DNA of 50,255 nt from a phage. Positions 1 to 14,547 of this stretch are shown piece by piece; position 1 is the stretch's first letter, and each line of letters starts with the position of its first letter. The notes below the pieces were generated by a model. It saw only the letters and a list, made by a program, of their open reading frames with translations. It ran no database searches and was not told where the DNA came from. A program made the translations under genes and the position numbers. The DNA is taken from sequence record PV636259.1; one strand, given 5' to 3'.

Positions 1-127
1 GTTGTAGCCATCAATACACATCAGCTTCATCATTACCGGGCGCTTAATCTTTCCCTTGCACCAGTAAAACCCATCCCTGCAATCAAGATAACTCTCAGTT
101 ACACAGCGTGAGCAAAACTCCTTAGAT
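1..127. repeat. Terminal duplication: identical to 50129..50255 (127 bp), consistent with circular-contig overlap
   Basis: Read directly: the first 127 nt of the window recur verbatim as the last 127 nt. 127 equals a common assembler maximum k-mer, so this is more likely an assembly overlap than a biological repeat. Confidence 0.9.
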
Positions 128-276
128 AGCGCGCTTGTAAATTCACGACGAGTCATTCCTGCGGCCTTAGCAAATCGCTCACTTTCCTTGTGGGCGTATA
201 TAAATTTCGCTATGTGCTGTCGAGTGTATTTGTCGTAACCTTCGCAGAACCTGAACAGATCTAAAAGAAGCAGCAT
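1..276 (-). CDS. Hypothetical Cys-rich protein, 5' part of an ORF that crosses the window junction (continues at 50128 down to 49997); about 135 aa in total
   Basis: ATG at 276 lies 4 nt after the stop of the 281..1849 gene. Hand translation MLLLLDLFRFCEGYDKYTRQHIAKF...CSRCVTESYLDCRDGFYWCKGK... runs in frame through position 1 and on into 50128..49997. Four Cys in CxxC/Cx6C spacing suggest a zinc ribbon. Confidence 0.45.
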   Translation of the reverse strand, partial: MLLLLDLFRFCEGYDKYTRQHIAKFIYAHKESERFAKAAGMTRREFTSALSKEFCSRCVTESYLDCRDGFYWCKGKIKRPVMMKLMCIDGYN

Positions 277-280
277 ATCA

Positions 281-1849
281 TTAACCCATCAGTCTAGGAT
301 TGATGAAAACAATATCATCAATGCGGCAAGTGTAGTTCATCTCTTCGAGCGTGATCAGCAGGCTGTCGATTCGCTCAGATACTTTCTGTTGACCGTTGAA
401 CGGCGTAACGTTCCGGCACTTTGCAACGATGCTATGAATAGGAGCGCGCCCTTTATTCTTCTTTGCGATCTCAGTGATAACATCAATCAGCTTACGAGAT
501 TCAGCCTCATCACCAGCATACCCGGCAGCGCTGGCAGACGACAGATAAGTCCTGGAAAGCTCATTAAAAATCATGATTGCTTCCTGCATCGTTTCAAGAT
601 CTATCTCACGATTGGAGCGGTTCGGAGATTCACCTTCCCAATTCTTTATCGTGTGAAGAACTGAAGCAATGCGCAATGCGTGCTTATCGAACTTACCGAG
701 ATGACCGCGTAGCATTGAGTGAGAGTATTTGCCACCTGCGGCGAAATCCGGCTCCATTGCCTGGCGCGCAAGGTTTAATTCACGCATAGCATTACGACTT
801 ACAGAAAGAACAACGTTTTCCTCCTTCATAATGTTGTGCACAAGTCGATAATATTTACTCACCAATCCTCGATCTACTTCCTTATACAGCGCATCACCAT
901 TTTCATCACAAAGAATACGAGTACCTAAAAGTGGTTCCTCACGAACTAAAAGGAAACGCTCAGATACGCCGATGCCTCGTTGGCCTGCGTCCATGATACC
1001 CTTGATTGTTTCATCCTGCGCAATAACGCAGATGGAACCGACCGGGCAAAGGGACAAGTTGTTATCCTGGTTGGAACGCGCTACCTCCATATGGTTTTTA
1101 TCCCACGCCTTAAGGATAAGCTCACTATTTGATTTCTTGTCTGAACCCCCATAAGTCAGGCCGAGCAATGTATTGATTGCTGTCGCCTCATCAGAGATTA
1201 CGGAGAAATGACCTTGAACAGCAGCTACCTTCGCAAGACCTTCAGGTGTAGGATCTGATACCGCGAAAACAATATCAGCCATCTTCTTGATCTTCTCTTC
1301 CAGTTTTTCTTTGTCTTCGTACAGCGCCGCCGTCGTGTTACCCTTCGGGTCGTTTTTAATTTCCTTCTCGACCTGACGTAGCTGACTGGTTAAGCGGATA
1401 CGCTCCTTTTTTCTCTCTTCGTTCAGTCGCTGAATTTCTGCACGCATAGGCGTAATCGCTGCGGAGTTAATCGCGGATTTACCTGTTGACGGTGGCTGGC
1501 TGATTACCATGTAAAGAGCGGTGGGTTGTTCTTCTCCGTGATATTGCACCCAAAACTTCCCGAGCATCGCGGCTGAGATGCACCCAATGAAATGAGCGTA
1601 CGCAGACGAAACAGGGAACTGTACAGACTCGGCCTTTGCTTTTGCATATTCGAATACCAGGTTATCGCCACCTAACGAAATCAGAGGGAACTTATCGTTG
1701 CCGCTATTGATATCGATCGGATCTTGCCAAAATGAAACTGAGTCACCATAGCTGTTTTCACGAATTGCGATTGCCACCGGATTAACTCCAGTGCTATTGG
1801 CGATCTCAATAATCTGTTGGTAATTCAGTTTTGGCTTAATATTAAACAT
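281..1849 (-). CDS. Large P-loop (Walker A-like PPSTGKS) protein, 522 aa; possible replication/recombination-associated NTPase
   Basis: Long ORF from the track; start moved to the ATG preceded by TAAGGAG (MFNIKPKL). Walker A-like motif and central K/E-rich coiled segment. Function not recognisable from sequence alone. Confidence 0.6.
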   Translation of the reverse strand: MFNIKPKLNYQQIIEIANSTGVNPVAIAIRENSYGDSVSFWQDPIDINSGNDKFPLISLGGDNLVFEYAKAKAESVQFPVSSAYAHFIGCISAAMLGKFWVQYHGEEQPTALYMVISQPPSTGKSAINSAAITPMRAEIQRLNEERKKERIRLTSQLRQVEKEIKNDPKGNTTAALYEDKEKLEEKIKKMADIVFAVSDPTPEGLAKVAAVQGHFSVISDEATAINTLLGLTYGGSDKKSNSELILKAWDKNHMEVARSNQDNNLSLCPVGSICVIAQDETIKGIMDAGQRGIGVSERFLLVREEPLLGTRILCDENGDALYKEVDRGLVSKYYRLVHNIMKEENVVLSVSRNAMRELNLARQAMEPDFAAGGKYSHSMLRGHLGKFDKHALRIASVLHTIKNWEGESPNRSNREIDLETMQEAIMIFNELSRTYLSSASAAGYAGDEAESRKLIDVITEIAKKNKGRAPIHSIVAKCRNVTPFNGQQKVSERIDSLLITLEEMNYTCRIDDIVFINPRLMG

Positions 1850-1903
1850 CACAATAAACTCCTTAGTTGACGGTGTAAATGATACACCGCCAATGGTACA
1901 CGC

Positions 1904-1921
1904 GTTTTGCAAAAAGTGCTA
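1904..1921 (-). promoter_or_regulatory. Operator/promoter motif copy (minus orientation; AATAGCACTTTTTGCAAAAC)
   Basis: Member of the TAGCA-N5-TGCTA family; followed on the minus strand by a hairpin and TAAGGAG RBS of the 281..1849 gene. Confidence 0.5.
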
Positions 1922-1925
1922 TTGG

Positions 1926-2342
1926 TTATAAGTATTTGGCCTCAAAGGTTGTGCCGTCAGCTATGCTAAAACCGATCTCTTCGCGAAATAATGTCCAACG
2001 GCAACCATCATCATCAAAAATATAACCAGCTACGCCGCCGAGAGCGCGACCGCTTTCCACTTGGTAACGCTTGCCAAGTTTGAATGATTTTTTCATCGGA
2101 TTTCGATGATCAAGTCCGGTGCACTTTAGCGTCTTTGTTTTCAACTCAGTGAACTTAGCGAAGAAGATTTCATCAGATCCGTGAATTTGTAATTCATCAT
2201 GCTTTTCAAGTTTTAAATACTTCCCGCATTTTAATTTTACTTCGCGAGTGCCATCGAAACGCTCTCGACCTTTGTATAGGTTGTTAACTTCAAATCCTGT
2301 GATTTTATCAGCGTAAGTACATTTCAGTTTGATTGATTTCAT
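1926..2342 (-). CDS. Hypothetical protein (138 aa)
   Basis: Track ORF; preceded (minus strand) by the ACCAATCAGGAG translation-initiation element. Confidence 0.55.
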   Translation of the reverse strand: MKSIKLKCTYADKITGFEVNNLYKGRERFDGTREVKLKCGKYLKLEKHDELQIHGSDEIFFAKFTELKTKTLKCTGLDHRNPMKKSFKLGKRYQVESGRALGGVAGYIFDDDGCRWTLFREEIGFSIADGTTFEAKYL

Positions 2343-2405
2343 CGCATTAACTCCTGATTGGTTATCTTGAATAAGGTCACTTTATCAAATGACCTTACGG
2401 CAATA

Positions 2406-2425
2406 TTAACAAATCGTGCTATTTA
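2406..2425 (-). promoter_or_regulatory. Operator/promoter motif copy (minus orientation; AATAGCACGATTTGTTAATA) overlapping the stop of 2423..2632
   Basis: TAGCA-N5-TGTTA palindrome followed by hairpin AAGGTCA...TGACCTT and the ACCAATCAGGAG leader. Confidence 0.5.
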
Positions 2426-2632
2426 CCAGGGAATATAATCGTCGTCGTCCTCATCAATATCATCGCCAGGTAACTCGAAGTTTGGATTATATTCGCTTTC
2501 TGCGTCCATATCCATATTCCCTAGCGCGTCATCAAGTGTGATTTCTTTATATGCAACCTTGATACACCATTCCGCACTAAGCCCGGCATCAAGAGCGGCA
2601 AAATAACGAGTCCAGAAATTATCCCGTTCCAT
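2423..2632 (-). CDS. Hypothetical acidic protein (69 aa; C-terminal DDIDEDDDDYIPW)
   Basis: Track ORF; start set to the ATG (second codon of the track ORF). Highly acidic C-terminus. Confidence 0.5.
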   Translation of the reverse strand: MERDNFWTRYFAALDAGLSAEWCIKVAYKEITLDDALGNMDMDAESEYNPNFELPGDDIDEDDDDYIPW

Positions 2633-2635
2633 CAA

Positions 2636-2860
2636 TTAACTCCATGAATTAATGTAAATTGAGTTAGCCTCAAGCGTAGCGCGCACATCAGCATCTGTTG
2701 CATTTACTAAGCGCGAGCCTGGCGTGCTGCCGATAACGTTATTACCGTTACGAGTCTTAGTTACCGTCATTGAAATAAAACCGGAAGACTTATCCATTTT
2801 GATAACTACACGGCCTTTCGCGTTCAGGTGCTTGATGATATTCTCAACTTTAATGCTCAT
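2636..2860 (-). CDS. Hypothetical protein (74 aa)
   Basis: Track ORF with AAGGAATTAAAAATG-type RBS on the minus strand. Confidence 0.5.
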   Translation of the reverse strand: MSIKVENIIKHLNAKGRVVIKMDKSSGFISMTVTKTRNGNNVIGSTPGSRLVNATDADVRATLEANSIYINSWS

Positions 2861-2919
2861 TTTTAATTCCTTTGTTTGTTTGGTGTGGGAGTAATATACC
2901 TTACTCCCTGCTGATTGTC

Positions 2920-2939
2920 TTTAGCTATTCGTGCTATCA
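2920..2939 (-). promoter_or_regulatory. Operator/promoter motif copy (minus orientation; TGATAGCACGAATAGCTAAAG)
   Basis: Motif then hairpin GGGAGTAAGG...TTACTCCC then RBS of the 2636..2860 gene. Confidence 0.5.
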
Positions 2940-3080
2940 GTACTCAGAAATTACTTTGCACTCTTTGATTGTGCCGCCTAGAACTACTTTCTGCATCATT
3001 GCTTTTTGATGGCTATCGTAAACGCGAACATTTTTTACGCTGTTAAATTTGCCAGTATAGAAAGTGTGAATATAAATCAT
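2937..3080 (-). CDS. Possible small protein (47 aa), translationally coupled (ATGA overlap with the 3077..3400 stop)
   Basis: Hand-translated MIYIHTFYTGKFNSVKNVRVYDSHQKAMMQKVVLGGTIKECKVISEY; below the track size cutoff; its stop TGA abuts the motif. Confidence 0.3.
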   Translation of the reverse strand: MIYIHTFYTGKFNSVKNVRVYDSHQKAMMQKVVLGGTIKECKVISEY

Positions 3081-3400
3081 TTTTTACCGTCCCAAGTTTG
3101 ATACGCCGTCACCAGGTTGATGCTATGATCGAACTCATCAATGCTTAGCGATCCGATTCGAACCAATTCTTTTTCATGCTTGATATCAATCATCCTGCTA
3201 TATGGATGACCTGGAACGTATTTGAACAGTCGCTTGCTGTCGGCAATGTCGGCATTGATCCCGTAGAATCTACCTACCGCCGCCTTCACGCGCTCCATGA
3301 TATTTTTTTCGTGAATTGCCGCCGCGTTATTCAGTGCCGCAACCGTGCTTGCGTTAATCTTCGGTGACTTCGTTGTGATTTTGTAAGTGTGGTTCATCAT
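3077..3400 (-). CDS. Hypothetical protein (107 aa)
   Basis: Track ORF; G-rich RBS (AAGGGGGG) before ATGATG. Confidence 0.55.
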   Translation of the reverse strand: MMNHTYKITTKSPKINASTVAALNNAAAIHEKNIMERVKAAVGRFYGINADIADSKRLFKYVPGHPYSRMIDIKHEKELVRIGSLSIDEFDHSINLVTAYQTWDGKK

Positions 3401-3414
3401 CCCCCCTTAACCAG

Positions 3415-3615
3415 TCAGGATAGTTTTCTCGCTTCATCAATGATAACAGGCTCGAGGCGCTCAAGTCGAACGCGGAACGTGTTCATAAATCCCTCGTTGT
3501 TCTTCAATAATTCGAAGGCATCCGTAGCTTCAATGGCGCTACTACCCATGTAAGCGATCACGCTCTTCTGAGTCTTGCGTGAGATCGCAACTACGCGGTA
3601 AATATTATCACTCAT
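3415..3615 (-). CDS. Hypothetical protein (66 aa)
   Basis: Track ORF 3415..3699 trimmed to the internal ATG preceded by GGAGG, which removes the overlap with 3608..3979. Confidence 0.45.
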   Translation of the reverse strand: MSDNIYRVVAISRKTQKSVIAYMGSSAIEATDAFELLKNNEGFMNTFRVRLERLEPVIIDEARKLS

Positions 3616-3979
3616 ACAATGCCTCCTTAACGCGATCTGCAATGCATGAGTTGACGGTGATTGAATAGTTAGCCACACCCCATAATGCAATATTGCCAAG
3701 CTCGGTCCGCATTGATGGGTTGTTAAGCTGGATTATTGTCTCTCCAGTATCATTATCAATGAAGCGAGACACGCCTAAATGGTCCATGGCGCGGGTTACT
3801 CGGTTCACGCACTCCATTGCATCACTTACGCCGTAATAAGCGCTTAGAGCGGCTCTCACTGCCTTCTCTTGCTTGTTGTAAATCTTTCGCGCAATGTTCT
3901 CGATCGCTACGTTCTCTTTCTCGTCAGTCTGGATTGCTGTGCTTGCTGAGAAGTCCAGGTCTACGAATTGTTTAAACAT
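3608..3979 (-). CDS. Hypothetical protein (123 aa)
   Basis: Track ORF; RBS GAGGTAATCACC before the ATG on the minus strand. Confidence 0.55.
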   Translation of the reverse strand: MFKQFVDLDFSASTAIQTDEKENVAIENIARKIYNKQEKAVRAALSAYYGVSDAMECVNRVTRAMDHLGVSRFIDNDTGETIIQLNNPSMRTELGNIALWGVANYSITVNSCIADRVKEALYE

Positions 3980-4035
3980 GGTGATTACCTCGTTTTCTGT
4001 TGATGGGAGAACTATAGCAGCCCTCCCGCATTTTC

Positions 4036-4054
4036 GTTTAGCAGAAAGTGCTAT
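4036..4054 (-). promoter_or_regulatory. Operator/promoter motif copy (minus orientation; AATAGCACTTTCTGCTAAAC) with downstream TATAGT and CATCAACAG leader
   Basis: Palindrome TAGCA-N5-TGCTA, then TATAGTTCTCCCATCAACAGAAAACGAGG, then the ATG of 3608..3979. Confidence 0.55.
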
Positions 4055-4240
4055 TTAGAATTTTACATCTTCAACAAGCTCAACCATTTTGTAACCAAGT
4101 CGATAGGAGTCCCCGAACAACAATAACCCCATAAATTCATCTTTGGTTATTGACTCCTTGCCAACAGTTTTAAGCTCTCCGTTGTGAATCACAGTATCGC
4201 CGATCTTGATTTCTGATTTGTGCACTAATTTCGTTTTCAT
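4055..4240 (-). CDS. Hypothetical small protein (61 aa)
   Basis: Track ORF. Confidence 0.45.
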   Translation of the reverse strand: MKTKLVHKSEIKIGDTVIHNGELKTVGKESITKDEFMGLLLFGDSYRLGYKMVELVEDVKF

Positions 4241-4255
4241 TTGTTAGCCTGTTAA

Positions 4256-4456
4256 TTAAAAGAATGCTACATAGTTTGCAATACCTTTAGCGTCGTCGTT
4301 AGGCATTGCCTTGACAGCCAAGTCATAACCAGCCTCTACCTTCTTCTTTGCTGACTCTTCGTTGTATCCCCAAATAACCAGGATTTTAACTACGTTTTCT
4401 TTGTTCAGGACTTTAAGTTCTTTAGTGATGCGACGTGCCATTTTGTTTTTCCTCAA
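4256..4456 (-). CDS. Hypothetical small basic protein (66 aa)
   Basis: Track ORF; preceded by a motif cassette with CATAAT -10 and CTCATCGAAACGAG leader. Confidence 0.5.
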   Translation of the reverse strand: MRKNKMARRITKELKVLNKENVVKILVIWGYNEESAKKKVEAGYDLAVKAMPNDDAKGIANYVAFF

Positions 4457-4498
4457 TCTCGTTTCGATGAGGTAATTATGCCAAATCGCACCGATCGA

Positions 4499-4519
4499 GT
4501 TTTAACAAAAAGTGCTATT
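4499..4519 (-). promoter_or_regulatory. Operator/promoter motif copy (minus orientation; GAATAGCACTTTTTGTTAAAAC) overlapping the stop of 4502..5206
   Basis: Full-consensus motif read as reverse complement; followed by CATAAT and the conserved leader. Confidence 0.55.
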
Positions 4520-5206
4520 CGCGATTGCTTTGAAAAATCCCCTTGGCGACAGAGATCGTATCAGTTTTGTTTTGGCAGACTTGCCGCCTAGCTTGCTGTG
4601 CTGTGCAGAGTACCCGTCAGGCAGTCTTACAGGTTTTCTTTCAGGCATGACAAAATCGTCAGAGGTCCACAGACAAGTTTTCTTCGGGTAAGCATCGCGC
4701 GGCGCAATATACATCGGGAACCAGGGGTGTGCGTCATTCTCTGGAAGATAGCCACCATACTCCCAGGGATTGAAGGAGTGATTTGGTTTTCTCCACGCAG
4801 AAGACAGGACGCTTACCGGATTCTCAATGATGTAAGTCACGCCCAGGCTATCGCCAATGTTCGCAGCAATCCGGGCGGTGGCAACAGCCTTCTCCTGGAA
4901 TAACGGATCGCGCTCACGCTTTCTGGCGAAGTGAGCAGCACCACTAACAGCCAGGTCAGTGCACGGCGGGAAGGCCATAATGAAATCAGGCTTGCCATAC
5001 ACGCCAGCGATAGCATCACGCTCGAACGCTGCGTCAATGAACACGTTCACATACTCAATGTTCGGATGCTCCACTCTGGCATTGTACTTTGCGTAATCTC
5101 CGTGATCGGCTCCGTCAAAGTTGAAGCACATCACCTTATGACCTTGCTTTGCCAGTTCATGACCAGCAAGCCCGGAACCGTCGAATAGTGACCAAATTAA
5201 TTTCAT
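4502..5206 (-). CDS. Short SAM-methyltransferase-like protein resembling the catalytic core of DNA cytosine-5 methyltransferases (234 aa)
   Basis: Order and spacing of FDGSG (motif I-like), FPPC (motif IV-like, Pro-Cys) and IENPV (motif VI-like ENV) match C5-MTase architecture; no target-recognition domain or motifs IX/X evident. First gene of the leftward early operon. Confidence 0.5.
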   Translation of the reverse strand: MKLIWSLFDGSGLAGHELAKQGHKVMCFNFDGADHGDYAKYNARVEHPNIEYVNVFIDAAFERDAIAGVYGKPDFIMAFPPCTDLAVSGAAHFARKRERDPLFQEKAVATARIAANIGDSLGVTYIIENPVSVLSSAWRKPNHSFNPWEYGGYLPENDAHPWFPMYIAPRDAYPKKTCLWTSDDFVMPERKPVRLPDGYSAQHSKLGGKSAKTKLIRSLSPRGFFKAIANSTFC

Positions 5207-5268
5207 CGTGACTTCCTCTTCTGATTGGTTTATGAGCTGGACTATACACGATCTACCCGACCGAGTCG

Positions 5269-5286
5269 TTAGCGAAAAATGCTATT
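5269..5286 (-). promoter_or_regulatory. Operator/promoter motif copy (minus orientation; AATAGCATTTTTCGCTAA) upstream of the MTase-like gene
   Basis: Followed on the minus strand by TATAGT and ACCAATCAGAAGAGGAAG RBS region, then the ATG at 5206. Confidence 0.5.
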
Positions 5287-5471
5287 CCAATAATTGCTCA
5301 TTATTCCATCAATACTGGAATATCTGGAATAATTACGATCATGATTGATCTCGAATGATGAAATGTGATTGTTGCATGGTGTGCAACAGTTGGTTGATTT
5401 GTTGCTTAGATTGCAATGATTGTGAGAGGGTGGATTTGGTGTTACCCGGTTCGCCTGGTGGTCATCTCCAT

Positions 5472-5490
5472 TTTTAGCAAAACGTGCTAT
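5472..5490 (-). promoter_or_regulatory. Operator/promoter motif copy (minus orientation; ATAGCACGTTTTGCTAAAA)
   Basis: Second copy in the control region, about 200 bp upstream of the first in the minus direction. Confidence 0.45.
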
Positions 5491-5893
5491 CGATTACACT
5501 TTAACTTGTCACGATTGTAATATTTGTCTAGAATCGCACTTGTGACAAAATTACGCACTGTGACGCCCCACAATAGACATATGGATATATGTATATATAT
5601 AATATATATAGTGTTTTTTTATTTATATATATAGATAATTATATTGTAATAGTTGTGTATAGCCGTCTTACATTGTCTAGCGTACTGTTGGCATATTTCT
5701 ATCTGCATGTTTATATATACAGTACTTTTTTGAGAGTCATATATTTCTATGTGTACTCTAGACAGCTAGACAAATGTTACACAGCTTAAAATTGGCTCGC
5801 AGGCATTGACGGCCCTGCATTGCGCTGTCACAATGGCAATTGTTGACATGTTATGACACCATTTACACATCAATAGACAAATGAGGATGGATT

Positions 5894-6409
5894 ATGAGCA
5901 ATACCAATCAGGAATTAAAAATCACCGATATGATTCGACTAACCTGCGATGCAATGTACCGCGACAAAGGCATGAATGAGTTCTCTTTCGTAGCTGATGA
6001 TATGGCCCTCGAAGCAGCGCGATTCTACTTTCGGGGCCAGGAAGTAAGCGATAGCGTTCTTGAATCTGCCGCTGCCGGATGGGTGGACCAGAATCAGGGT
6101 GAGGTGGAGAAGCGATTCAAGTCTGCTTTCATTACGCCAATCATTACCAGGCACTTTTGCAAGTATGGCAAGGTGGCAAAGGTGAAGGTGGGCCGGAATG
6201 ACGCCGCAATCACAATGATAACCGTTATCGTTACAGACGAAGAGGTTCCGGTGAAGAAACGCCGCAGCCGGAAAAAAGTTAGCCTGGCCGACTGCCTGGA
6301 TTCGTTTGATGTTGATGTTAGCAAACTATCCGATAGCGAGTTAATGGTTCGTGATGTGAATGAGATCGTGCGCCAGATGAAAGCACATATTGAAAAGTGT
6401 GGACTGTAA
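5894..6409 (+). CDS. Hypothetical protein (171 aa), first gene of the rightward early operon
   Basis: Track ORF; RBS GAGGATGG before ATG. Confidence 0.6.
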   Translation: MSNTNQELKITDMIRLTCDAMYRDKGMNEFSFVADDMALEAARFYFRGQEVSDSVLESAAAGWVDQNQGEVEKRFKSAFITPIITRHFCKYGKVAKVKVGRNDAAITMITVIVTDEEVPVKKRRSRKKVSLADCLDSFDVDVSKLSDSELMVRDVNEIVRQMKAHIEKCGL

Positions 6410-6415
6410 GGAGAG

Positions 6416-6682
6416 ATGAGTATGAGCAAGATTAAGCATGACGCCCTGAAAGGTATCTTGATGCGACTAAACCCAGGCGAAGCATTCCAGCTTAACCCCG
6501 AGACATTCGGGTTCGTCGGCTTCTATAGACTTGGCCTACAGATGAGTTCGCCAGCCGATGAGCTGGTCCGGTATGTGCGAAAGCAGTTCGGCGTCGAGAT
6601 GATTAGTCTCGGAAAGGTGCAAGGCATCCAGACATTCATCTTTAAGCCAAATGAGATTCGTTGCTTCACGCTGATGAAATAG
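6416..6682 (+). CDS. Hypothetical protein (88 aa)
   Basis: Track ORF; its stop TAG is the first three bases of a motif copy. Confidence 0.55.
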   Translation: MSMSKIKHDALKGILMRLNPGEAFQLNPETFGFVGFYRLGLQMSSPADELVRYVRKQFGVEMISLGKVQGIQTFIFKPNEIRCFTLMK

Positions 6683-6698
6683 CACTTTTTGTTAAAAC
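6680..6698 (+). promoter_or_regulatory. Operator/promoter motif copy (TAGCACTTTTTGTTAAAAC) + hairpin + TATTAT + CATCGACAC leader
   Basis: Read directly; the stop codon of 6416..6682 is embedded in the motif. Confidence 0.6.
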
Positions 6699-6754
6699 CC
6701 GACCGAGCGGATCGGGTATTATCTTCTCATCGACACGATACAGAGGAAGCGAAG

Positions 6755-6949
6755 ATGGAAACGCAAATTGACGTAGTGGTTGTTCAGCGCGACTCAACTC
6801 ATGAAAAGGGTCTGTTCAAGAAAGGAACCGAAATCACGATCGACCTTGAGGATATGGTTGCATATCACTCTGGCCTTACCTGGAACGTGGTGCGCGTAGG
6901 CAGCGACTACAAACTCAAAGGCTTTAACACTTACTTTGCGGAGGTTTAA
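6755..6949 (+). CDS. Hypothetical protein (64 aa)
   Basis: Track ORF 6689..6949 trimmed to the ATG preceded by GAGGAAG; the upstream part overlaps the regulatory cassette. Confidence 0.5.
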   Translation: METQIDVVVVQRDSTHEKGLFKKGTEITIDLEDMVAYHSGLTWNVVRVGSDYKLKGFNTYFAEV

Positions 6950-6951
6950 TC

Positions 6952-7419
6952 ATGGCGACAATTACCGTATTCCTGGCTAAAGATGAGATTGATGGCGAAA
7001 TGTCATTCTTCGCGTTTGAGCACAAAACCGGATCGCACTGGCACATGTACAGTCACTACACGGTTATTGATATCAACTCATACCGCGCAGGCTCACTTAC
7101 TGAAAAGCTGGGTTGCTTCATTGGAGCTATCAAGGCGAACAATGGCTGCGATTGTGAAGATGAGCAAGAGCGTCGCATGTGCGATATGATTAACCCGGTC
7201 TATCTTGAGTCTTTCGATCTTGATTCTGATGTGACCATTAAGGTGAGAAAGTCGGGTGAGTTGTTGCCAGGGATGCGTGTGCTGACTGGTTACTCGGGCC
7301 GTAAGGTGTGGCGCACTGTATCCAAGATTCGCCAGCGTTCGGCAACATGCTATAGCGTATTCTTTAATGATGGCTGGAATGAGGTTGCTGGCAGTAACGT
7401 GAAGTATCTTACCAAATAG
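6952..7419 (+). CDS. Hypothetical protein (155 aa)
   Basis: Track ORF; stop TAG embedded in the next motif. Confidence 0.55.
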   Translation: MATITVFLAKDEIDGEMSFFAFEHKTGSHWHMYSHYTVIDINSYRAGSLTEKLGCFIGAIKANNGCDCEDEQERRMCDMINPVYLESFDLDSDVTIKVRKSGELLPGMRVLTGYSGRKVWRTVSKIRQRSATCYSVFFNDGWNEVAGSNVKYLTK

Positions 7420-7435
7420 CACGAATTGTTAAAAC
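7417..7435 (+). promoter_or_regulatory. Operator/promoter motif copy (TAGCACGAATTGTTAAAAC) + TGCTATAGT extended -10 + CCATCGAAACG leader
   Basis: Read directly. Confidence 0.6.
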
Positions 7436-7493
7436 AGGATCGTGGTATCTTGCTATAGTTACCCCATCGAAACGCTTCTTGGCAAACCCAAAA

Positions 7494-7600
7494 GAAGGAA
7501 GCGGCAAACGTAGAACGGAGCCGCGAAAACCTCGAAGCAAAATTGACCTGGAAAAACCCATCAGGAAGGAAGCGGCAAACGTAGACCGGAGTCGCGAAAC
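7494..7600 (+). repeat. Two tandem copies of a ~36-bp element GAAGGAAGCGGCAAACGTAGA(A/C)CGGAG(C/T)CGCGAAAAC (7494..7530 and 7565..7600) in a 220-bp untranslated leader
   Basis: Read directly; each copy can fold GCGGC...GCCGC/GTCGC and carries an AGGAAG Shine-Dalgarno-like sequence with no ORF. Confidence 0.6.
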
Positions 7601-7638
7601 CCCAGGTTAAAAATTACACACCAATCAGAGGATTCACC

Positions 7639-7869
7639 ATGTCAATCATCAAGAACCAACAAGCCATCGACTCAACCAGCCACAACTGCTTTGCTATTTT
7701 CATCACTCGCGACAACAAGCGATTTGCTGTCAGGGCTGTACCGGGTGGATACAAAACCTATATGGAAAATAACGGAAAATGGGTATGCTGCGACAACCTG
7801 GCCAACTTCCTGGTATGGAACGCAGACCTGCAAGGATTCGACGATATCAGCACTTTAATTGAGGAATAA
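7639..7869 (+). CDS. Hypothetical protein (76 aa)
   Basis: Track ORF; preceded by ACACCAATCAGAGGA initiation element. Confidence 0.55.
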   Translation: MSIIKNQQAIDSTSHNCFAIFITRDNKRFAVRAVPGGYKTYMENNGKWVCCDNLANFLVWNADLQGFDDISTLIEE

Positions 7870-7875
7870 ATAATC

Positions 7876-8103
7876 ATGCCACGTTACAGCAACCTAACCA
7901 AACTAATCCGCGTCAACGGGCACATGATCCCGTCTAAATCTACTCACTGCGCGAAAGGCGCAAAGCACGGATTATATTTCAAGTGGCGCGGTCAATGGAA
8001 CTTCACGGCGGTGAGCAATTTTTACATGCGCGTTCCTGGTGACGATCCGCAATCGGTAGTAGAAAACTCAATCGGCGACAACAAGATCGAGGTGCTAAAA
8101 TGA
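7876..8103 (+). CDS. Hypothetical protein (75 aa)
   Basis: Track ORF. Confidence 0.5.
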   Translation: MPRYSNLTKLIRVNGHMIPSKSTHCAKGAKHGLYFKWRGQWNFTAVSNFYMRVPGDDPQSVVENSIGDNKIEVLK

Positions 8104-8206
8104 ACTTTAATACAGTAGCGCTATGGTCTGCCGTCTGGTTCTTCTGCATGGGTCACGTTATGGTCGGCATCGTTGTAATGCTTCTCCTGTGTGCGGGGGC
8201 GTTCGA

Positions 8207-8380
8207 ATGATGCGTATATTTATTTGCATGATGGCGTCGGTCGCCCTGGCTATCCTGGTAGTGTCCGGCTGTGGCGAGGTCAAAGAGCGATGCCATGAAA
8301 CCGGGAACCAGGTTACTACATTCGTGATGGTTGGCAATGTTTTACTACCAATCACATCAAATGAAATCACTTGCGAATAG
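8207..8380 (+). CDS. Small putative lipoprotein (57 aa; signal peptide with VSGC lipobox)
   Basis: MMRIFICMMASVALAILVVSGCGEV...; start set to the ATG after GGGGGCG. Stop TAG embedded in the next motif. Confidence 0.45.
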   Translation: MMRIFICMMASVALAILVVSGCGEVKERCHETGNQVTTFVMVGNVLLPITSNEITCE

Positions 8381-8396
8381 CACTTTTTGTTAAAAC
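8378..8396 (+). promoter_or_regulatory. Operator/promoter motif copy (TAGCACTTTTTGTTAAAAC) + hairpin enclosing GATATAGT + CATCGACAACG leader
   Basis: Read directly. Confidence 0.6.
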
Positions 8397-8451
8397 GCGA
8401 TCATGTGGTTGCGATATAGTAACCACATCGACAACGAACGAGGACGAGAAC

Positions 8452-8940
8452 ATGAAAATTAAATTACTTTGCACTGGCGGTTACAAAGGCTTTACTCGCG
8501 ACCTAGAAGCCGATCCTATTATCGTTGACGCCGTGAAGTGCGATGATAGCATTGGCGGCTACAGAGTCAAGGTCGATGACCTGGTTAAAGCTGGCGTGTA
8601 CGATCTTGATTACGGCCTATCGGTTAGTCCGGCATTTGGCCCGGCTGACTTCAACGAGAAGGACGGAACGATGTTCTTTTTTGAATGGGAAGTCCAGGCA
8701 AACATCAAGCCGCGCAAGGTTCGACTTCTCAACAATGGCGGGTATCCTATGCGCCCTGGTTATGAGAATCGCACGTTCCCGGTTATTGTTGACTTTGAAG
8801 AAATCACTAACAACTTGGTATACGTTAGCCATGAGCACCTGCGAGCCGTTGGATTCGTTGGCGGTATGCATAAAGAAGCACTATGCTTCGTTCGCGAGGA
8901 AATGCACGGTTACTATTCTGAGTGTGAGTTAGTTTACTAA
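8452..8940 (+). CDS. Hypothetical protein (162 aa)
   Basis: Track ORF 8371..8940 trimmed to the ATG after GAGGACGAG. Confidence 0.55.
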   Translation: MKIKLLCTGGYKGFTRDLEADPIIVDAVKCDDSIGGYRVKVDDLVKAGVYDLDYGLSVSPAFGPADFNEKDGTMFFFEWEVQANIKPRKVRLLNNGGYPMRPGYENRTFPVIVDFEEITNNLVYVSHEHLRAVGFVGGMHKEALCFVREEMHGYYSECELVY

Positions 8941-8955
8941 GCACGAATTGTTAAA
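8938..8955 (+). promoter_or_regulatory. Operator/promoter motif copy (variant TAAGCACGAATTGTTAAA) + hairpin + TGGTACAAT
   Basis: Read directly; stop TAA of 8452..8940 embedded. Confidence 0.5.
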
Positions 8956-9011
8956 TGGGGATTCATCCTGACTGGTACAATCCCCACATCAACCACTAAG
9001 AGGAAATCATT

Positions 9012-9518
9012 ATGTTGAAATTAGAAGATGTTAAATTCCCGATCAAATTTATCAGCATGGGATGTGGTGAAATTACGTTCACCGATAAAGATAAGGGTAC
9101 ATGGGCCACTAATGAGGTGTCGCAGCTTAAGCTGGAGTGGTTTATTGCCAGACATAACGAAGTGAATAAAGAAAACTCACCAAATAAGGACTACCACTAC
9201 ATTATGAGTGACGGTAATAATGCTTACAGCTTGTATGATAGCTGGAAGATTGAAGGCTCAATCTTCAAAGCTGCAAAGCCAGAAATCAAGCCATCGTTAC
9301 AGTGCTCTCAGATCGAGAACATGCCACTTAGAGCGACTTTAAAGGGTGTCCAGCTTGATAGCGAATCATGGTTCGAGATTACCGCCACACCTAAAACTAT
9401 TGAGGTACATGATGATGTGGTTATTCTCCTGTTGCATTACGGCAGCTTTAAGCACAGAACGGTATCAGGAGAAATCAGCATTAAGCGCGGAACGCTCGTC
9501 CGCTATGAGGTGAAATAA
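9012..9518 (+). CDS. Hypothetical protein (168 aa)
   Basis: Track ORF; RBS AAGAGGAAATC before ATG. Confidence 0.55.
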   Translation: MLKLEDVKFPIKFISMGCGEITFTDKDKGTWATNEVSQLKLEWFIARHNEVNKENSPNKDYHYIMSDGNNAYSLYDSWKIEGSIFKAAKPEIKPSLQCSQIENMPLRATLKGVQLDSESWFEITATPKTIEVHDDVVILLLHYGSFKHRTVSGEISIKRGTLVRYEVK

Positions 9519-9667
9519 TGGCTGCATGGGTATTGATTATCTTGATGAGCACCGGGCCGGATCACGTATACATGGAAAGTCAGCAAGCATGTAACAAGGC
9601 TCGGGAAGTAATTGCAGAAAACAAGCCGTTCGGATATGAAGTAAAAACAATGTGCGTTAAAAGATAG
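9518..9667 (+). CDS. Possible small membrane protein (49 aa)
   Basis: Hand-found ORF MAAWVLIILMSTGPDHVYMES... with ATG overlapping the upstream stop (TAATG); its stop TAG starts the next motif. Below track cutoff. Confidence 0.35.
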   Translation: MAAWVLIILMSTGPDHVYMESQQACNKAREVIAENKPFGYEVKTMCVKR

Positions 9668-9683
9668 CACGAATTGCTAAACC
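9665..9683 (+). promoter_or_regulatory. Operator/promoter motif copy (TAGCACGAATTGCTAAACC); hairpin GGCCA...TGGCC encloses TGTTATAGT
   Basis: Read directly. Confidence 0.55.
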
Positions 9684-9774
9684 TTCCGCAAGGCCATTTG
9701 TTATAGTGGCCTTATTGAAGCACGGCAACCAACCAATCAGGCTGAATGCAGGATAATTTAATGAGGTTTTATCT

Positions 9775-10008
9775 ATGATTATCGTCAACAAAGAAACTGG
9801 AGAGGTAATGGAGAATTGCATCATCATAGAAGAGTCGCCAAAGTCAAAGCACAAGCATGGTACTTACAGAAAGGTCACTTGCAAGGCTCCGGGGTGTGGT
9901 AATACATACGATGCAAAAGTGTCCGATCTGAATCGCGGATGGGGATTAACTTGCAGCAAGTCATGTGCCGCCGTCGTTCGTGAATTAAAGAAGAAAGGGA
10001 ATATATAA
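9775..10008 (+). CDS. Small Cys-rich (zinc-binding-like) protein (77 aa)
   Basis: Track ORF; CKAPGCGN...CSKSC spacing suggests a Zn ribbon. Confidence 0.5.
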   Translation: MIIVNKETGEVMENCIIIEESPKSKHKHGTYRKVTCKAPGCGNTYDAKVSDLNRGWGLTCSKSCAAVVRELKKKGNI

Positions 10009-10214
10009 TGGCTACACGACTCACTCAATGGCAGATTTACGACAAGGCCTCACGCCTTCGTGAATCACTTCGCGGACTGACGTCAAATGATCGCATGGAA
10101 ATCATCGGTCATGCATTGCACGAACTAACGCCGCATGACGTAACCTATCATTCTTGCGGCAATAAATTTTGGAACGTAACATTCGAGGTGAATGAAGATG
10201 AGCAAAACTCATAA
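10008..10214 (+). CDS. Hypothetical protein (68 aa)
   Basis: Track ORF; ATG overlaps the upstream stop (TAATG). Confidence 0.5.
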   Translation: MATRLTQWQIYDKASRLRESLRGLTSNDRMEIIGHALHELTPHDVTYHSCGNKFWNVTFEVNEDEQNS

Positions 10215-10485
10215 ATTAAAAATCGCCCCGGTACATTTCATTGGAGTAATGAACGGAACAAAAACGGCAGAGTTCCGCATCAATGACCGCAACTTCCAGC
10301 CTGGCGATATCCTGGAGCTATGCGAGTTCGATCGTGACGAGTTTACCGGGTGGGAAGTTCACGCCAGGGTGTCCGATGTTACAGACGTGACGCCATACAT
10401 CAATCGCGGGTATGACGATCAGGAATGCGACTTCACGCAATACGTGATGTTATCAATCAAACCTTACAGGAAGGTTAGACCATGA
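10198..10485 (+). CDS. ASCH/PUA-like small protein (DUF3850-like), 95 aa
   Basis: N-terminal KLKIAPVHFIGVMNGTKTAEFRINDRNFQPGDIL resembles ASCH-type PUA-fold domains as I recall them; start set to the ATG after GAGGTGAATGAAG. Similarity not verified by search. Confidence 0.45.
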   Translation: MSKTHKLKIAPVHFIGVMNGTKTAEFRINDRNFQPGDILELCEFDRDEFTGWEVHARVSDVTDVTPYINRGYDDQECDFTQYVMLSIKPYRKVRP

Positions 10486-11120
10486 AATTTGAATGCGTAT
10501 CAAGTGACGGAACGGGCTTTAAGTGGGGAAAAATCTACGAGGGCGTTCTCGTCAATGACGACAGCTTCGTTGTCGTGGATGAGCACGGTAGCAATGTGAA
10601 CATCATCCGTCGTCACGAATACCAAGAAATTTTCCTGCCGTATGGCGGTAGTTCAAAATATATCTTCCATCGAATCGTGGATGGTGTTAAATTTAACGAC
10701 GTAATCGAAGCAATCAACCAACTGCATAATAAAGAGGTAAAATTTATGAAATTTGAATGTATCAGTGATAACACCAAAAAATTTACTGTTGGCAAAATCT
10801 ACGACGTTCCTACTGAGCACGCAAAGCACACTGTAGCGCTTACTGACGACACGGGCCGTCACCGCATTGCTACCGTAACGCATAATGGCGAAGGTCTGCG
10901 ATGGAATAGCGGCGGCACTAAGTTTGCAACGTTCGGCAAGAAGCGTAAGCGCACTTTCTGCGTTAAAGGCAAGGTTGCAGCAAACAAGATCCACAACGTC
11001 AAGCCGTCGGAAGTTGACAGCAAGCCAGCGACGAAGTTTGAAGAGAAAGCAGATTTGTCTGGTCTGGCTATCGCTCTTGTTCTCCTGGTCGCTTCTATTT
11101 CGCTGATGTTCATCATGTAA
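10482..11120 (+). CDS. Membrane-anchored protein with two tandem paralogous domains (MKFEC(V/I)S...GKIY...) and a C-terminal transmembrane helix, 212 aa
   Basis: Internal duplication visible directly (residues 1-50 versus about 86-135); C-terminal LSGLAIALVLLVASISLMFIM hydrophobic segment. Confidence 0.55.
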   Translation: MKFECVSSDGTGFKWGKIYEGVLVNDDSFVVVDEHGSNVNIIRRHEYQEIFLPYGGSSKYIFHRIVDGVKFNDVIEAINQLHNKEVKFMKFECISDNTKKFTVGKIYDVPTEHAKHTVALTDDTGRHRIATVTHNGEGLRWNSGGTKFATFGKKRKRTFCVKGKVAANKIHNVKPSEVDSKPATKFEEKADLSGLAIALVLLVASISLMFIM

Positions 11121-11126
11121 TGTTAA

Positions 11127-11162
11127 CGGGGAATCGGCTCTGAACGGTTCCCCTTTCTTTTG
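11127..11162 (+). terminator. Rho-independent terminator (GGGGAA...TTCCCC + T-run)
   Basis: Hairpin followed by TTTCTTTTGG directly after the 10482..11120 stop. Confidence 0.6.
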
Positions 11163-11268
11163 GAGAAAATTCTATGCCAGACTTTGATAACTGGAAAAAC
11201 GAGCCGCCATCATTTCAGGAGTTGCTATTCTGCCTCCTGGTTCTGACAATATCTCTTAAGGGTGTTTT

Positions 11269-11487
11269 ATGGCTACTATCATGACAGCGGAAGATGCAGC
11301 GCGTGAAGCAGTGGAAGGGATGCGCCCAAATACCTCCAGAATCGCACACTACTACAATTTTGACGTGTCGGCAGTGCAGCTGGTCCATGAAATTTTAAGG
11401 CTCCCACAAGTTGATTCAGTGCGCGTGGTGACGTGCTTAAAAAATTATTTTTGCATCACTATTAAAATGAATAGCACGAATTGCTAA
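11269..11487 (+). CDS. Hypothetical protein (72 aa); last five codons (N-S-T-N-C-stop) are encoded by the motif itself
   Basis: Track ORF; ...AATAGCACGAATTGCTAA read in frame. Confidence 0.5.
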   Translation: MATIMTAEDAAREAVEGMRPNTSRIAHYYNFDVSAVQLVHEILRLPQVDSVRVVTCLKNYFCITIKMNSTNC

Positions 11488-11490
11488 AAC
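11472..11490 (+). promoter_or_regulatory. Operator/promoter motif copy (TAGCACGAATTGCTAAAAC); hairpin GGGGAAT...ATTCCCC encloses GCTATGAT
   Basis: Read directly. Confidence 0.6.
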
Positions 11491-11544
11491 CTATCAAGGG
11501 GAATGCGCTATGATTCCCCTACACCAAAAAACGAGGGAACACTC

Positions 11545-11991
11545 ATGAAACATTTGATTTGCATTGACACACCTAACAATGAATACACCCTATACGAAAT
11601 TGGAATGTTCAAAGGCCACTACATGACAGCAAGCATTTATGATGCGCGTCGAGGCGATGGCGATCTGATTATTACGTCAAAAGACGTTAATCCGTACATT
11701 ATGCAGAATCTTGGCAATAATGAATATATGGCTTACGGCTGCAACGCGGTGTACAAACATGTCAAGATCCGTAAGCGTATTGTTCGAGCGTTTAAGAAAA
11801 TCGCCATGAAGCACTGGAAGATGAGCAAGAAGGAGGCTGGGCGCTGGGCGCGTAACGTTGCTGATTCATACTTCTATCGTAACGGTGAGTCGTGCTGCTT
11901 CCTGATCGATGAAATGATGGAAAATTATAGCGGCACATTCTGCCAAAGTGATTTTGACGCTTGGGCTGACTACGAGGTAGATTGCTGGTAA
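11545..11991 (+). CDS. Hypothetical protein (148 aa)
   Basis: Track ORF 11503..11991 trimmed to the ATG after GAGGGAACAC. Confidence 0.55.
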   Translation: MKHLICIDTPNNEYTLYEIGMFKGHYMTASIYDARRGDGDLIITSKDVNPYIMQNLGNNEYMAYGCNAVYKHVKIRKRIVRAFKKIAMKHWKMSKKEAGRWARNVADSYFYRNGESCCFLIDEMMENYSGTFCQSDFDAWADYEVDCW

Positions 11992-12010
11992 TAGCACTAA
12001 TTGCTAAAAC
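11992..12010 (+). promoter_or_regulatory. Operator/promoter motif copy (TAGCACTAATTGCTAAAAC); hairpin AAGGGCA...TGCCCTT encloses GGTAGAAT
   Basis: Read directly; abuts the TAA stop of 11545..11991. Confidence 0.6.
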
Positions 12011-12073
12011 TTGCTCAAGGGCATTTGGTAGAATGCCCTTCGTTGAGTTAAGCAACCAATCAGAGGAATCACT

Positions 12074-12277
12074 ATGAAAACTATTACCGGAATGAGCAAC
12101 GAAACGAGAACGCAGATCGTTAACATGCTAATCGGCATGGCTGACGATATTCAGAATAGCCAGGTCGTTATTGATTCATGCAATCAGACTCGTGAGAGTA
12201 AATTTGAATCATCCGGCTACAAAATTGTTGAAGAAGAATTAACCATCAAAATCATTCGCGTACAGGAGAAAGCATAA
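12074..12277 (+). CDS. Hypothetical protein (67 aa)
   Basis: Track ORF; preceded by ACCAATCAGAGGAATCACT initiation element. Confidence 0.5.
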   Translation: MKTITGMSNETRTQIVNMLIGMADDIQNSQVVIDSCNQTRESKFESSGYKIVEEELTIKIIRVQEKA

Positions 12278-12810
12278 TGGATAAAATTACAATTTGGGGT
12301 CAAACTATCAACCTGTTTCTCGGTCCGCGCCGCGTCGCAATCTTTGACTTTGACGGAACACTGAGTGACGGATCAAAGCGCCTTCACCTGTTGCCAACAA
12401 AGGATTTGCACTTAACTGAAAGCTGGTCTGAGTTTAACCGAGCGGCAATATTTGATAACCCAATCCAGAGCACGATTGAGGTTATGAACTCTATGTTTGC
12501 TGCCGGGTATCACGTAATAGTTTTAACCGGGCGAAGTGATGAGGTTCGTTACGCATCTGAGTTATGGCTTAAGCATCACGGTGCGAGATATGATTACTTA
12601 GTCATGCGACCGCACACAGACAACAGGAAAGACACGGTGATGAAAGAAGAAGCGGTGCGAGCGATCGGTATTGAAAACATCCTGGCAGCTTGGGATGACT
12701 CACCGCAAATTATTCCATTATTCCGGTCGCTTGGAATAACAACATATGCGGTAGTTGACTATGGCGATAACATTCACGATCATTTAAAATCGCACGGGGT
12801 AGAGAAATGA
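12277..12810 (+). CDS. HAD-superfamily phosphatase (177 aa)
   Basis: HAD motif I FDFDGTL, motif II VLTGR, and a C-terminal WDDSPQ acidic motif; ATG overlaps the upstream stop (TAATG). Either polynucleotide 3'-phosphatase-like or nucleotide phosphatase; cannot distinguish without a search. Confidence 0.6.
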   Translation: MDKITIWGQTINLFLGPRRVAIFDFDGTLSDGSKRLHLLPTKDLHLTESWSEFNRAAIFDNPIQSTIEVMNSMFAAGYHVIVLTGRSDEVRYASELWLKHHGARYDYLVMRPHTDNRKDTVMKEEAVRAIGIENILAAWDDSPQIIPLFRSLGITTYAVVDYGDNIHDHLKSHGVEK

Positions 12811-12918
12811 ACCTATACGAATTTATTGCAGCACATCCGGTATTGACGGTTATCATCCTGCTAATCATAAATCACACTATCATCAATATGGCAAAATTAT
12901 TTTTAGGGAGATACTGAT

Positions 12919-13491
12919 ATGAAAACAGCTATCATTTTAAACGGCGCTCCTGGAGCAGGCAAGGACACTATCGGATGCATCCTGGCTGACACTTACGATC
13001 ATGTAGCTTTGCGCAGCTTCAAAGCACCAATGTTTGAGATTGCTCGGGCAATCCTGGGTGAGGCTAACTACGAGTATTTCATGTTCTTGTATGAGGATCG
13101 TCGTTACAAAGAAGAGCCAGCGTCAATCCTGAACGGTAAAAGCCCGCGCCAGTTTATGATCTGGATTAGCGAGGAAGTAATCAAGCCGCAGTTCGGAAAT
13201 CGCTTCTTCGGTATGCGAGCGGAAAGCAAGGTCAAAGAGTCATATTCTCTGTCAGTATTTACTGATGGTGGATTCAAAGATGAGGTATTGCAGATGATTG
13301 AAGGTGATATCCAGGTCAAGCTATGCCGAATCCACCGCAAGGGCGGCAACTTTGACAACGACAGTCGTGATTATATTTACCTGGAAGATATGATCGGGGT
13401 TAATGGTTATCAGGAGTGTGATTTCTTCTCTGTCGAAGGTCATCCAGAAATTACCGCTCAGCACATAGCCGCTACGTTCATCAACAAATAG
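12919..13491 (+). CDS. P-loop kinase (190 aa): polynucleotide-kinase-like or dNMP-kinase-like
   Basis: N-terminal Walker A LNGAPGAGKDT. GAPGAGK resembles polynucleotide kinase P-loops and SGKDT resembles phage dNMP kinases; adjacent to the HAD phosphatase. Confidence 0.55.
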   Translation: MKTAIILNGAPGAGKDTIGCILADTYDHVALRSFKAPMFEIARAILGEANYEYFMFLYEDRRYKEEPASILNGKSPRQFMIWISEEVIKPQFGNRFFGMRAESKVKESYSLSVFTDGGFKDEVLQMIEGDIQVKLCRIHRKGGNFDNDSRDYIYLEDMIGVNGYQECDFFSVEGHPEITAQHIAATFINK

Positions 13492-13507
13492 CACGAATTG
13501 CTAAAAC
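13489..13507 (+). promoter_or_regulatory. Operator/promoter motif copy (TAGCACGAATTGCTAAAAC) + TGATATAGT extended -10 + CTCATCGACAAC leader
   Basis: Read directly; TAG stop of the kinase gene embedded. Confidence 0.6.
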
Positions 13508-13563
13508 GTCGGTGGGGTGATTTGATATAGTTACCTCATCGACAACAAAGAGAGAAAATCGAA

Positions 13564-13773
13564 ATGATGTTATATGCTGGCAAGTTGTTTAAATGCAATA
13601 AAACTTCTGAAGTATTCGAACTTATTGAAACTGATGATGGTGACTTCATGCATGACGGTTGCGACGTTTTTATCGAGGTGAAAGAAAGCGACTATGACGA
13701 CGGAGTTTATTATAACCCGGCAGTGAATACTCAGTTTTTTACACCGATCGAAGATGATGGAGAAGAGGCATGA
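13564..13773 (+). CDS. Hypothetical acidic protein (69 aa)
   Basis: Track ORF. Confidence 0.5.
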   Translation: MMLYAGKLFKCNKTSEVFELIETDDGDFMHDGCDVFIEVKESDYDDGVYYNPAVNTQFFTPIEDDGEEA

Positions 13774-14114
13774 TTACGATTAACCTATCAGAGAAGCAAG
13801 CTCGTGAAATCCTTGATGCGATCGGCGACCAATTGCACGTAAAAGGAGCAACTGCCGAGTTGCTCAACCAGATCGAAAATCAACTTACTCCTGTTTCAAC
13901 GAATCAAGCTGAGTTTGCAGCCTGGAAGAGCGAGCGCATCCTGCCAAATATCATCAAGGCATGGAAGCGCAAGCATAAAAAAGAAATCAATGTTGATGAC
14001 TTATTTTCTGATGAATTAAGTCCTTCAAAGGTTGCTCAATATCAGTTGCGATACATGGAATCAGTTTGCAATCAGGTCTTAAATGTCAACTTTTCATTCG
14101 GGAGTGGTAAATAA
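13770..14114 (+). CDS. Hypothetical protein (114 aa)
   Basis: Track ORF; start overlaps the upstream stop. Confidence 0.5.
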   Translation: MITINLSEKQAREILDAIGDQLHVKGATAELLNQIENQLTPVSTNQAEFAAWKSERILPNIIKAWKRKHKKEINVDDLFSDELSPSKVAQYQLRYMESVCNQVLNVNFSFGSGK

Positions 14115-14344: not shown

Positions 14345-14547
14345 TGGCTAACTTACCGAAGAAAGGCGATCAGGTTCGATGTGTTACATCACGCAATGGT
14401 GATGCTTTCTCAGCGGGATGCTTGTATGACGTTGAAAAAGTAAGTAAAGCAAAGAGACTTGTATTTGTATACGGAGACGATGGAAATATTCATGAGATTG
14501 ACTACCCGCAGGATATTGCTAAGGGCCAATTTGAAATTAATGATTGA
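14344..14547 (+). CDS. Hypothetical small protein (67 aa)
   Basis: Track ORF; TAATG overlap. Confidence 0.5.
   Translation: MANLPKKGDQVRCVTSRNGDAFSAGCLYDVEKVSKAKRLVFVYGDDGNIHEIDYPQDIAKGQFEIND

Follow-up and report, generated by a model that had tools for sequence, protein, structure and literature searches.

The T1-like coliphages are known to package their DNA by a pac-initiated headful mechanism. In T1 and SH6, this mechanism is accompanied by terminal redundancy and partial permutation (PMC5238451), and pac-headful packaging has also been described for TLS along with T1 (PMC11447400). Restriction digests of SU57 behave as those of a permuted molecule (PMC7718038), and for the close relative KanT1, which is kin of phi2013, no fixed termini were detected by PhageTerm (PMC13164509). 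In the RefSeq record of T1, the first 2,800 bases are annotated as a repeat region.

Repeats at the ends of a sequence can also be left by the assembly. End overlaps of 127 bp on SPAdes contigs have been described in general terms (PMC5923482), and in the SPAdes contig of the T1-like Escherichia phage U136B, terminal repeats of 127 bp were present and were trimmed off (PMC8104045). The DNA analysed here, a phage sequence of 50,255 nucleotides (sequence record PV636259.1) referred to as the window throughout the text, also holds the same 127 bases at both ends. This identity is almost certainly the usual assembler overlap on a circularised T1-like contig, for which we infer an assembler origin. 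The full account, to which we give a probability of about 95%, is that the window represents the unit genome of a Tunavirus, written from a de Bruijn cycle opened at an arbitrary k-mer inside the homologue of T1 ORF10.

The End Repeat and the Unit Circle

Direct comparison of prefix and suffix over the whole window revealed that bases 1..127 equal bases 50129..50255 with no mismatch, and that 127 is the only length at which both ends match. A repeat search, also over the whole window, returned this pair (family D4, spacing 50128) as the sole long exact direct repeat. An exact identity of 127 bases in 50 kb makes a chance origin impossible. When one copy is removed, a unique circle of 50,128 bp is obtained, the window length being that of the unit genome plus 127. 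Neither copy has a strand; the first (1..127) lies inside the coding sequence of the gene that crosses the junction, and the second (50129..50255) is redundant and is the one to trim to reach the 50,128-bp unit genome. The repeat covers codons ~50-92 of this conserved 135-aa gene, which is intact in relatives.

An earlier note on this DNA had claimed the exact identity of the two ends, which is borne out by both the direct comparison and the repeat search, and had related its length to the k-mer of an assembler. The latter proposal agrees with the documented SPAdes artefact, as 127 bp is precisely the k value reported for SPAdes end overlaps (PMC5923482, PMC8104045).

Relatives and Collinearity with T1

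The two ends were joined into a query of 1600 bp (circle 49329..50128 plus 1..800), which was searched against phage records. This query matched 63 records, all of them from T1-like Escherichia or Shigella phages (among them JMPW1, phi2013, IME167, DELF2, SH2, LeonhardEuler, SH6, and ADB-2), and in 58 of the 63 it was found uninterrupted at a single place, with 92-98% identity. According to their annotated regions, the records of JMPW1, LeonhardEuler, and T1 are classed in Drexlerviridae, Tunavirinae, Tunavirus, and the closest relatives of the window are Tunavirus records. Over its first 25 kb, the window had no match of 99% identity or more in the phage collection.

The alignment to T1 is circular, with T1 1..44236 corresponding to window 5371..50128, and T1 44237..48703 to window 1..4008. 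In total, 88% of T1 aligns to the window in circular order, with 79-94% identity, and the joint 50128|1 of the window equals T1 44236|44237 base for base, at a position within the T1 gene ST10 (44105..44512). The size of 50,128 bp falls in the range of related records (48.8-51.5 kb). Judged by its sequence, the window holds the complete unit genome of a Tunavirus (Drexlerviridae), a T1-like coliphage, which adds one more genome to a genus that has already been sampled heavily.

The reading of the window as a circularised T1-like contig, made in the same earlier note, stands, with the joined ends contiguous in 58 relatives and T1 and the junction far from both the T1 left end and the terminase genes. 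Its wording of a closed circular genome holds for the assembly graph but not for the virion DNA, for which homology with T1 predicts linear and partially permuted molecules with terminal redundancy.

Several differences from T1 were observed along the collinear genome. The three HNH endonuclease genes annotated in T1 (ST8, ST63, and ST15) are all absent here at otherwise collinear positions (window 1923..1928, 12763..12919, and 48398..48440, versus T1 46085..46624, 5465..5959, and 42028..42510), which fits the presence/absence pattern typical of homing endonucleases. The region 4008..5371 comprises 1.4 kb with no T1 counterpart at that position, and it holds an ORF (4502..5206, minus strand) for a DNA methyltransferase (phrog_757, E 1e-83), present besides the T1-type methyltransferase region near 45464..46177. 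Two more blocks, 35254..36617 and 39471..40493, do not align to T1. The first follows the central tail fibre gene, where T1 encodes Cor and membrane proteins and the window holds an ORF of 321 aa (35478..36443, minus strand), and the second covers the lateral tail fibre gene (39474..41321, minus strand) in its 3' part. Both blocks are likely to be host-range or exclusion modules exchanged between relatives.

The Gene across the Junction

When the joined circle is read, an ORF appears on the minus strand that starts at ATG 276..274, runs past base 1, continues from 50128 downwards, and ends at TGA 49999..49997, with 135 codons (139 from stop to stop). Its 5' part (1..276) includes codons 1-92 of 135, and its 3' part (49997..50128) codons 93-135 plus the TGA. 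Because ORFs running off an end go unlisted, the linear ORF listing shows just a 54-aa fragment (49997..50161, minus strand). The earlier note had predicted about 135 aa from 276 to 1 and from 50128 to 49997, invisible to linear ORF calling, and had proposed trimming one copy of the repeat and reading the genes again as a check. Both predictions proved right, and this check restored the 135-aa ORF across the junction.

The 135-aa product matches phrog_2794 from end to end (E 2.1e-64), its residues 2-129 aligning with positions 1-128 of a profile 129 positions long, and homologues of equal length are annotated as JMPW1 gp66, LeonhardEuler bas13_0044, and T1 ST10 (CPTT1_070). A tblastn search found this protein in 836 phage records across Drexlerviridae. 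The T1 homologue (YP_003935.1, AAP49989.1) is labelled as an HTH domain-containing protein, a name that derives from an HHpred match stated in the T1 record. No Pfam match was obtained for either the 135-aa protein or the 66-aa protein discussed below. On these sequence grounds, the junction gene is the known, conserved homologue of T1 ORF10.

Regarding the fold, the structure was predicted on a homologue 94% identical to the 135-aa protein, and the model of this homologue shows an N-terminal winged helix, consisting of a helical bundle followed by a beta-hairpin wing. The C-terminal part of the protein is conserved, yet poorly modelled. A Foldseek search of the model against the PDB gave no significant match (best E 0.23). 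The sole return of a profile search against PDB sequences, R-spondin (E 0.4), was judged spurious.

A zinc ribbon built on four cysteines, which had been suggested from the sequence of the window, was discarded. Of these residues, only C87 is invariant, while an alignment with diverged homologues (P0004-P0012) shows C58, C66, and C73 replaced by G/S/M, R/G/N, and S/L, respectively. Moreover, the model locates C55 and C58 in a long helix and C66 and C73 in the wing hairpin, with no zinc-ribbon fold; the winged-helix prediction and the HTH label of the T1 homologue also speak against that suggestion. With moderate confidence, and on the basis of fold and gene order only, the 135-aa product is a predicted winged-helix DNA-binding protein that would act with the helicase or the replication module. 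The alpha protein of phage P4 carries a C-terminal winged helix, and by analogy with it the 135-aa protein might bind the origin and act as a partner to the helicase.

A Small Gene Overlapping the Junction Gene

An ORF on the minus strand at 49885..50088 (67 aa from a GTG start) had been noticed previously, and it is present as described. From ATG 50085, the gene (49885..50085) encodes 66 aa, lies in the +1 frame with respect to the junction gene, and overlaps its last 89-92 nt (49997..50085). Its product matches phrog_9539 (E 7.6e-29, profile positions 2-64 of 64). The earlier note had proposed that this ORF and the junction gene compete with each other, which would mean that only one of the two overlapping minus-strand ORFs is real and that 49885..50088 is an artefact of gene calling. 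Some data fit such an artefact: in the T1 records, the 135-aa gene is the only one annotated here and the 117 nt between it and the terminator carry no annotation, the overlap of ~90 nt exceeds typical overlaps between phage genes, and the AlphaFold2 model of the small protein, although helical, is of low confidence (pLDDT 62).

Against an artefact, the substitution pattern is that of a coding sequence. In an alignment of 14 distinct related sequences over the locus, 13 of which span the stretch of the small ORF, variable sites in its unique part (49996..49885) are distributed 11/5/30 by codon position in its own frame, and variant codons are synonymous/nonsynonymous 35/17 in this frame versus 3/50 and 7/47 in the others. 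The unique part of the junction gene behaves in the same manner (39/24 in its own frame versus 7/57 and 7/56). The overlap is the least variable stretch, with 0.135 variable sites per base versus 0.191 and 0.413, as expected for dual coding.

The small ORF also persists in diverged relatives, which again argues against an artefact. A 67-aa ORF of equal length and frame is conserved in a sequence with ~70% DNA identity (L016), and gene callers report equivalent +1-frame overlapping genes in two others (L020 and L021), in which the junction protein is just 59% and 52% identical. The four small products share the motif EEF..LLSLLL.SMRAS...H.L.D.DG..L.V, and in all four the small-gene ATG is formed from the codon of the invariant Asp107 of the junction protein (aGT GAT GAg, read as ATG), and ~30 codons would be read in two frames. 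By tblastn, the small protein was found in 618 phage records, down to 33% identity. In damhaus, the small gene is present and unannotated, overlapping the junction-gene homologue, which is labelled 'YdbL' there, and it is also unannotated in both T1 records, though the coding sequence is present. Finally, the terminator of the operon begins 1 nt after the stop codon of the small gene.

Because of these substitution patterns, the persistence in diverged relatives, and the adjoining terminator, both genes appear to be real and to coexist as a conserved +1-frame overlapping pair, rather than to compete, and it is improbable that 49885..50088 is a product of gene calling. A programmed frameshift joining both ORFs was set aside, as it would need a +1 shift and the small ORF has its own conserved ATG. 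This ATG is preceded by GGAG 9 nt upstream, a feature conserved in four diverged lineages.

We somewhat favour the stronger view of an obligate dual-coding module, made up of the junction gene and the 66-aa gene and conserved throughout Drexlerviridae, with the overlap as the most conserved DNA of the locus. If it were true that the overlap couples the synthesis of both proteins, the replication operon of a classic phage would contain a small device for regulation.

The Operon around the Junction

Upstream of the junction gene, and with its stop codon 4 nt before the ATG of the latter, is a gene for a DUF3987 helicase/ATPase (281..1849, minus strand; 522 aa from ATG 1849), which is the homologue of T1 ST9 (Pfam DUF3987, E 3e-42; phrog_2373, DNA helicase). 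The longest ORF at this place (281..1912, minus strand) would encode 543 aa from a TTG at 1912, running into a promoter-associated box at 1905..1922. Since the TTG start enters this box, the mechanical ORF call over-extends the helicase by 21 codons. T1 ST9 has 1569 nt and 522 aa, and ATG 1849 is the matching start and is preceded by AAGGAG; it is likely to be the true start of the helicase.

The box upstream of the helicase (1905..1922, minus strand), ATAGCACNNNTTGNTAAA, is one of 21 copies in the window, versus 0.05 expected by chance. This copy probably serves as promoter for the transcription unit running across the contig junction. The remaining copies start at 2405, 2920, 4037, 4501, 5473, 22027, and 25793 on the minus strand, like 1905, and at 6679, 7416, 8377, 9664, 11471, 11991, 13488, 15319, 41342, 42884, 45393, 46416, and 48404 on the plus strand. 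These boxes look like promoters in sequence because TATAGT usually follows ~17 nt later. Most of them point along the neighbouring genes, and those at 22027 and 25793 lie between genes of the late structural operon, in antisense orientation. Phage TLS holds 18 intergenic 21-base repeats of such kind (PMC11447400). Additionally, three near-identical modules consisting of a terminator plus a promoter (CCCGCCTTGCGCGGGTTTTTTT, then TA(G/T)AATG) are found at 15278, 29751, and 31930 on the plus strand, and a separate near-duplication of 51 nt at 7494 and 7565.

The other end of the operon is a bidirectional rho-independent terminator (49863..49883), which lies between the lysis cassette on the plus strand and the helicase operon on the minus strand; a terminator is also annotated at the corresponding site in T1. 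A spanin gene (49471..49875, plus strand; phrog_1804, E 9e-48) closes the lysis cassette and converges on this terminator, and T1 has its u-spanin at the homologous place. According to this arrangement, the leftward operon would consist of the promoter box, the DUF3987 helicase gene, the 135-aa gene, the overlapping 66-aa gene, and the bidirectional terminator.

In LeonhardEuler, SH6, ADB-2, Eco_BIFF, Sfin-3, and others, an insertion of ~296 bp is located exactly after the stop codon of the 66-aa gene (window ~49884). The LeonhardEuler insertion (L002 2056..2351) comprises one ATAGCAC promoter box and the 71-aa gene bas13_0043, in what resembles a moron-like cassette. The insertion is absent from the window, JMPW1, and T1.

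Packaging and the Origin of the End Repeat

The left end and the redundancy of T1 considered here were taken from the repeat_region feature of the T1 record and from secondary papers. Base 1 of T1 aligns approximately at window 5371, and base 2 of the JMPW1 record at 5372. The region 5371..5729 (plus strand) is the homologue of T1 bases 1..371, the start of the T1 2.8-kb repeat_region. It shares 79% identity with T1 across these 371 nt, and 5.4 kb separate it from the junction. It is likely to correspond to the pac-proximal end of the first headful, a position transferred from the T1 record by sequence alignment. The T1-type terminase genes, for the small subunit (15353..15877, plus strand) and the large subunit (15902..17485, plus strand), were recognized by matches to phrog_606 and phrog_38 for the terminase pair, and they sit in a 22-kb block 93% identical to T1. 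The contig junction coincides neither with the left end of T1 or the 2.8-kb repeat region that starts there nor with the terminase genes. From the T1-type terminase genes and the literature, the phage of the window would be expected to package its DNA by the pac-headful mechanism, yielding terminally redundant and partially permuted molecules.

Some phage groups have exact terminal repeats of 100-500 bp, and the 127-bp repeat might be a genuine short direct terminal repeat, T7-like, in which case the window would be a true linear genome with physical ends. Sequence alone cannot tell such a repeat from an assembler overlap. However, this repeat is placed centrally in a conserved protein-coding gene, for which 827 related records show no interruption, the terminase genes belong to the block shared with T1, a pac-headful phage (PMC5238451), and the annotated terminal repeat region of T1 is 2.8 kb long and maps 5.4 kb off. 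Furthermore, the lack of fixed termini in KanT1 (PMC13164509) and the coincidence of the length with the SPAdes maximum k, a documented artefact, both count against it. A genuine short terminal repeat is thus very unlikely, mainly because of the mid-gene site, the T1-type packaging genes, and the location of the T1 2.8-kb repeat elsewhere.

De Bruijn graphs may also close falsely on repeats at least k long, but a misassembled or incomplete genome, in which a collapsed internal 127-bp repeat mimics a circle and sequence is missing at the junction, is hardly credible when both flanks are collinear with T1 and 58 other records with a gapless join, the 50,128 bp agree with the size of related genomes, and the restored ORF has its full length, with 99.3% identity to JMPW1 gp66.

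In the assembler overlap that we favour, pac-initiated headful cutting from concatemers would, as in T1, give rise to virion DNAs that are terminally redundant and partially permuted. Reads from such permuted molecules would bridge every position, and the assembly would close on itself. A de Bruijn assembler would then write the cycle opened at an arbitrary k-mer, leaving k = 127 bases at both ends, and this opening point would have fallen by chance inside the conserved 135-aa gene homologous to T1 ORF10.

Significance and Comparison with Known Systems

The value of this finding is practical and not conceptual. An untrimmed k-mer overlap overstates the genome length by 127 bp, may be labelled as a direct terminal repeat, and hides or truncates the gene cut by the arbitrary opening, in this case a conserved gene of the T1 replication operon for a predicted winged-helix protein. 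Trimming 50129..50255 and rotating the genome before gene calling, for example to the T1 convention near 5371, recovers the junction gene. As a minor by-product, evidence has been obtained for a real, family-wide, out-of-frame overlapping gene of 66 aa that the T1 reference annotation lacks. The only mildly new point would be the support that sequence comparison gives to dual coding in a conserved overlap of the T1 replication operon, and some records already list both overlapping genes as hypothetical proteins.

The end overlap of the window is almost certainly a known assembly artefact and not new in kind. It shares with the SPAdes k = 127 overlap (U136B, PMC8104045; PMC5923482) the exact 127-bp ends, the T1-like permuted genome, and a length of unit plus 127; no difference is detectable from the sequence. 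The T7-like short direct terminal repeats are similar in that ~100-250 bp are identical at both ends of a linear record. Nevertheless, those repeats mark physical ends resulting from DTR-type packaging, whereas the window has its repeat within a conserved gene, in a phage for which pac-headful packaging is predicted, and the T1 repeat region maps elsewhere.

Regarding the two genes of the locus, the 66-aa product is 89% identical to a hypothetical protein of Escherichia phage CLB_P3 (P0014, P0017; phrog_9539), which is also 66 aa long; this homologue is annotated in CLB_P3, whereas it has been left unannotated in the T1 records and damhaus. The 135-aa protein may be compared with winged-helix domains (the MarR, PadR, IclR, and Fur N-terminal domains, and that of the retron Ec86 effector), but identity is just 7-17%, and these domains show no counterpart to its conserved C-terminal 60 residues. 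In contrast, the members of the T1 ORF10 family (T1 ORF10/ST10, phrog_2794, JMPW1 gp66, and LeonhardEuler bas13_0044) are the same as the gene of the window, with 135 aa, 97-99% identity, and a matching place in the operon, right after the DUF3987 helicase gene and before the bidirectional terminator. The gene is split here by the arbitrary opening of the contig, which does not represent a biological difference from the T1 ORF10 family.
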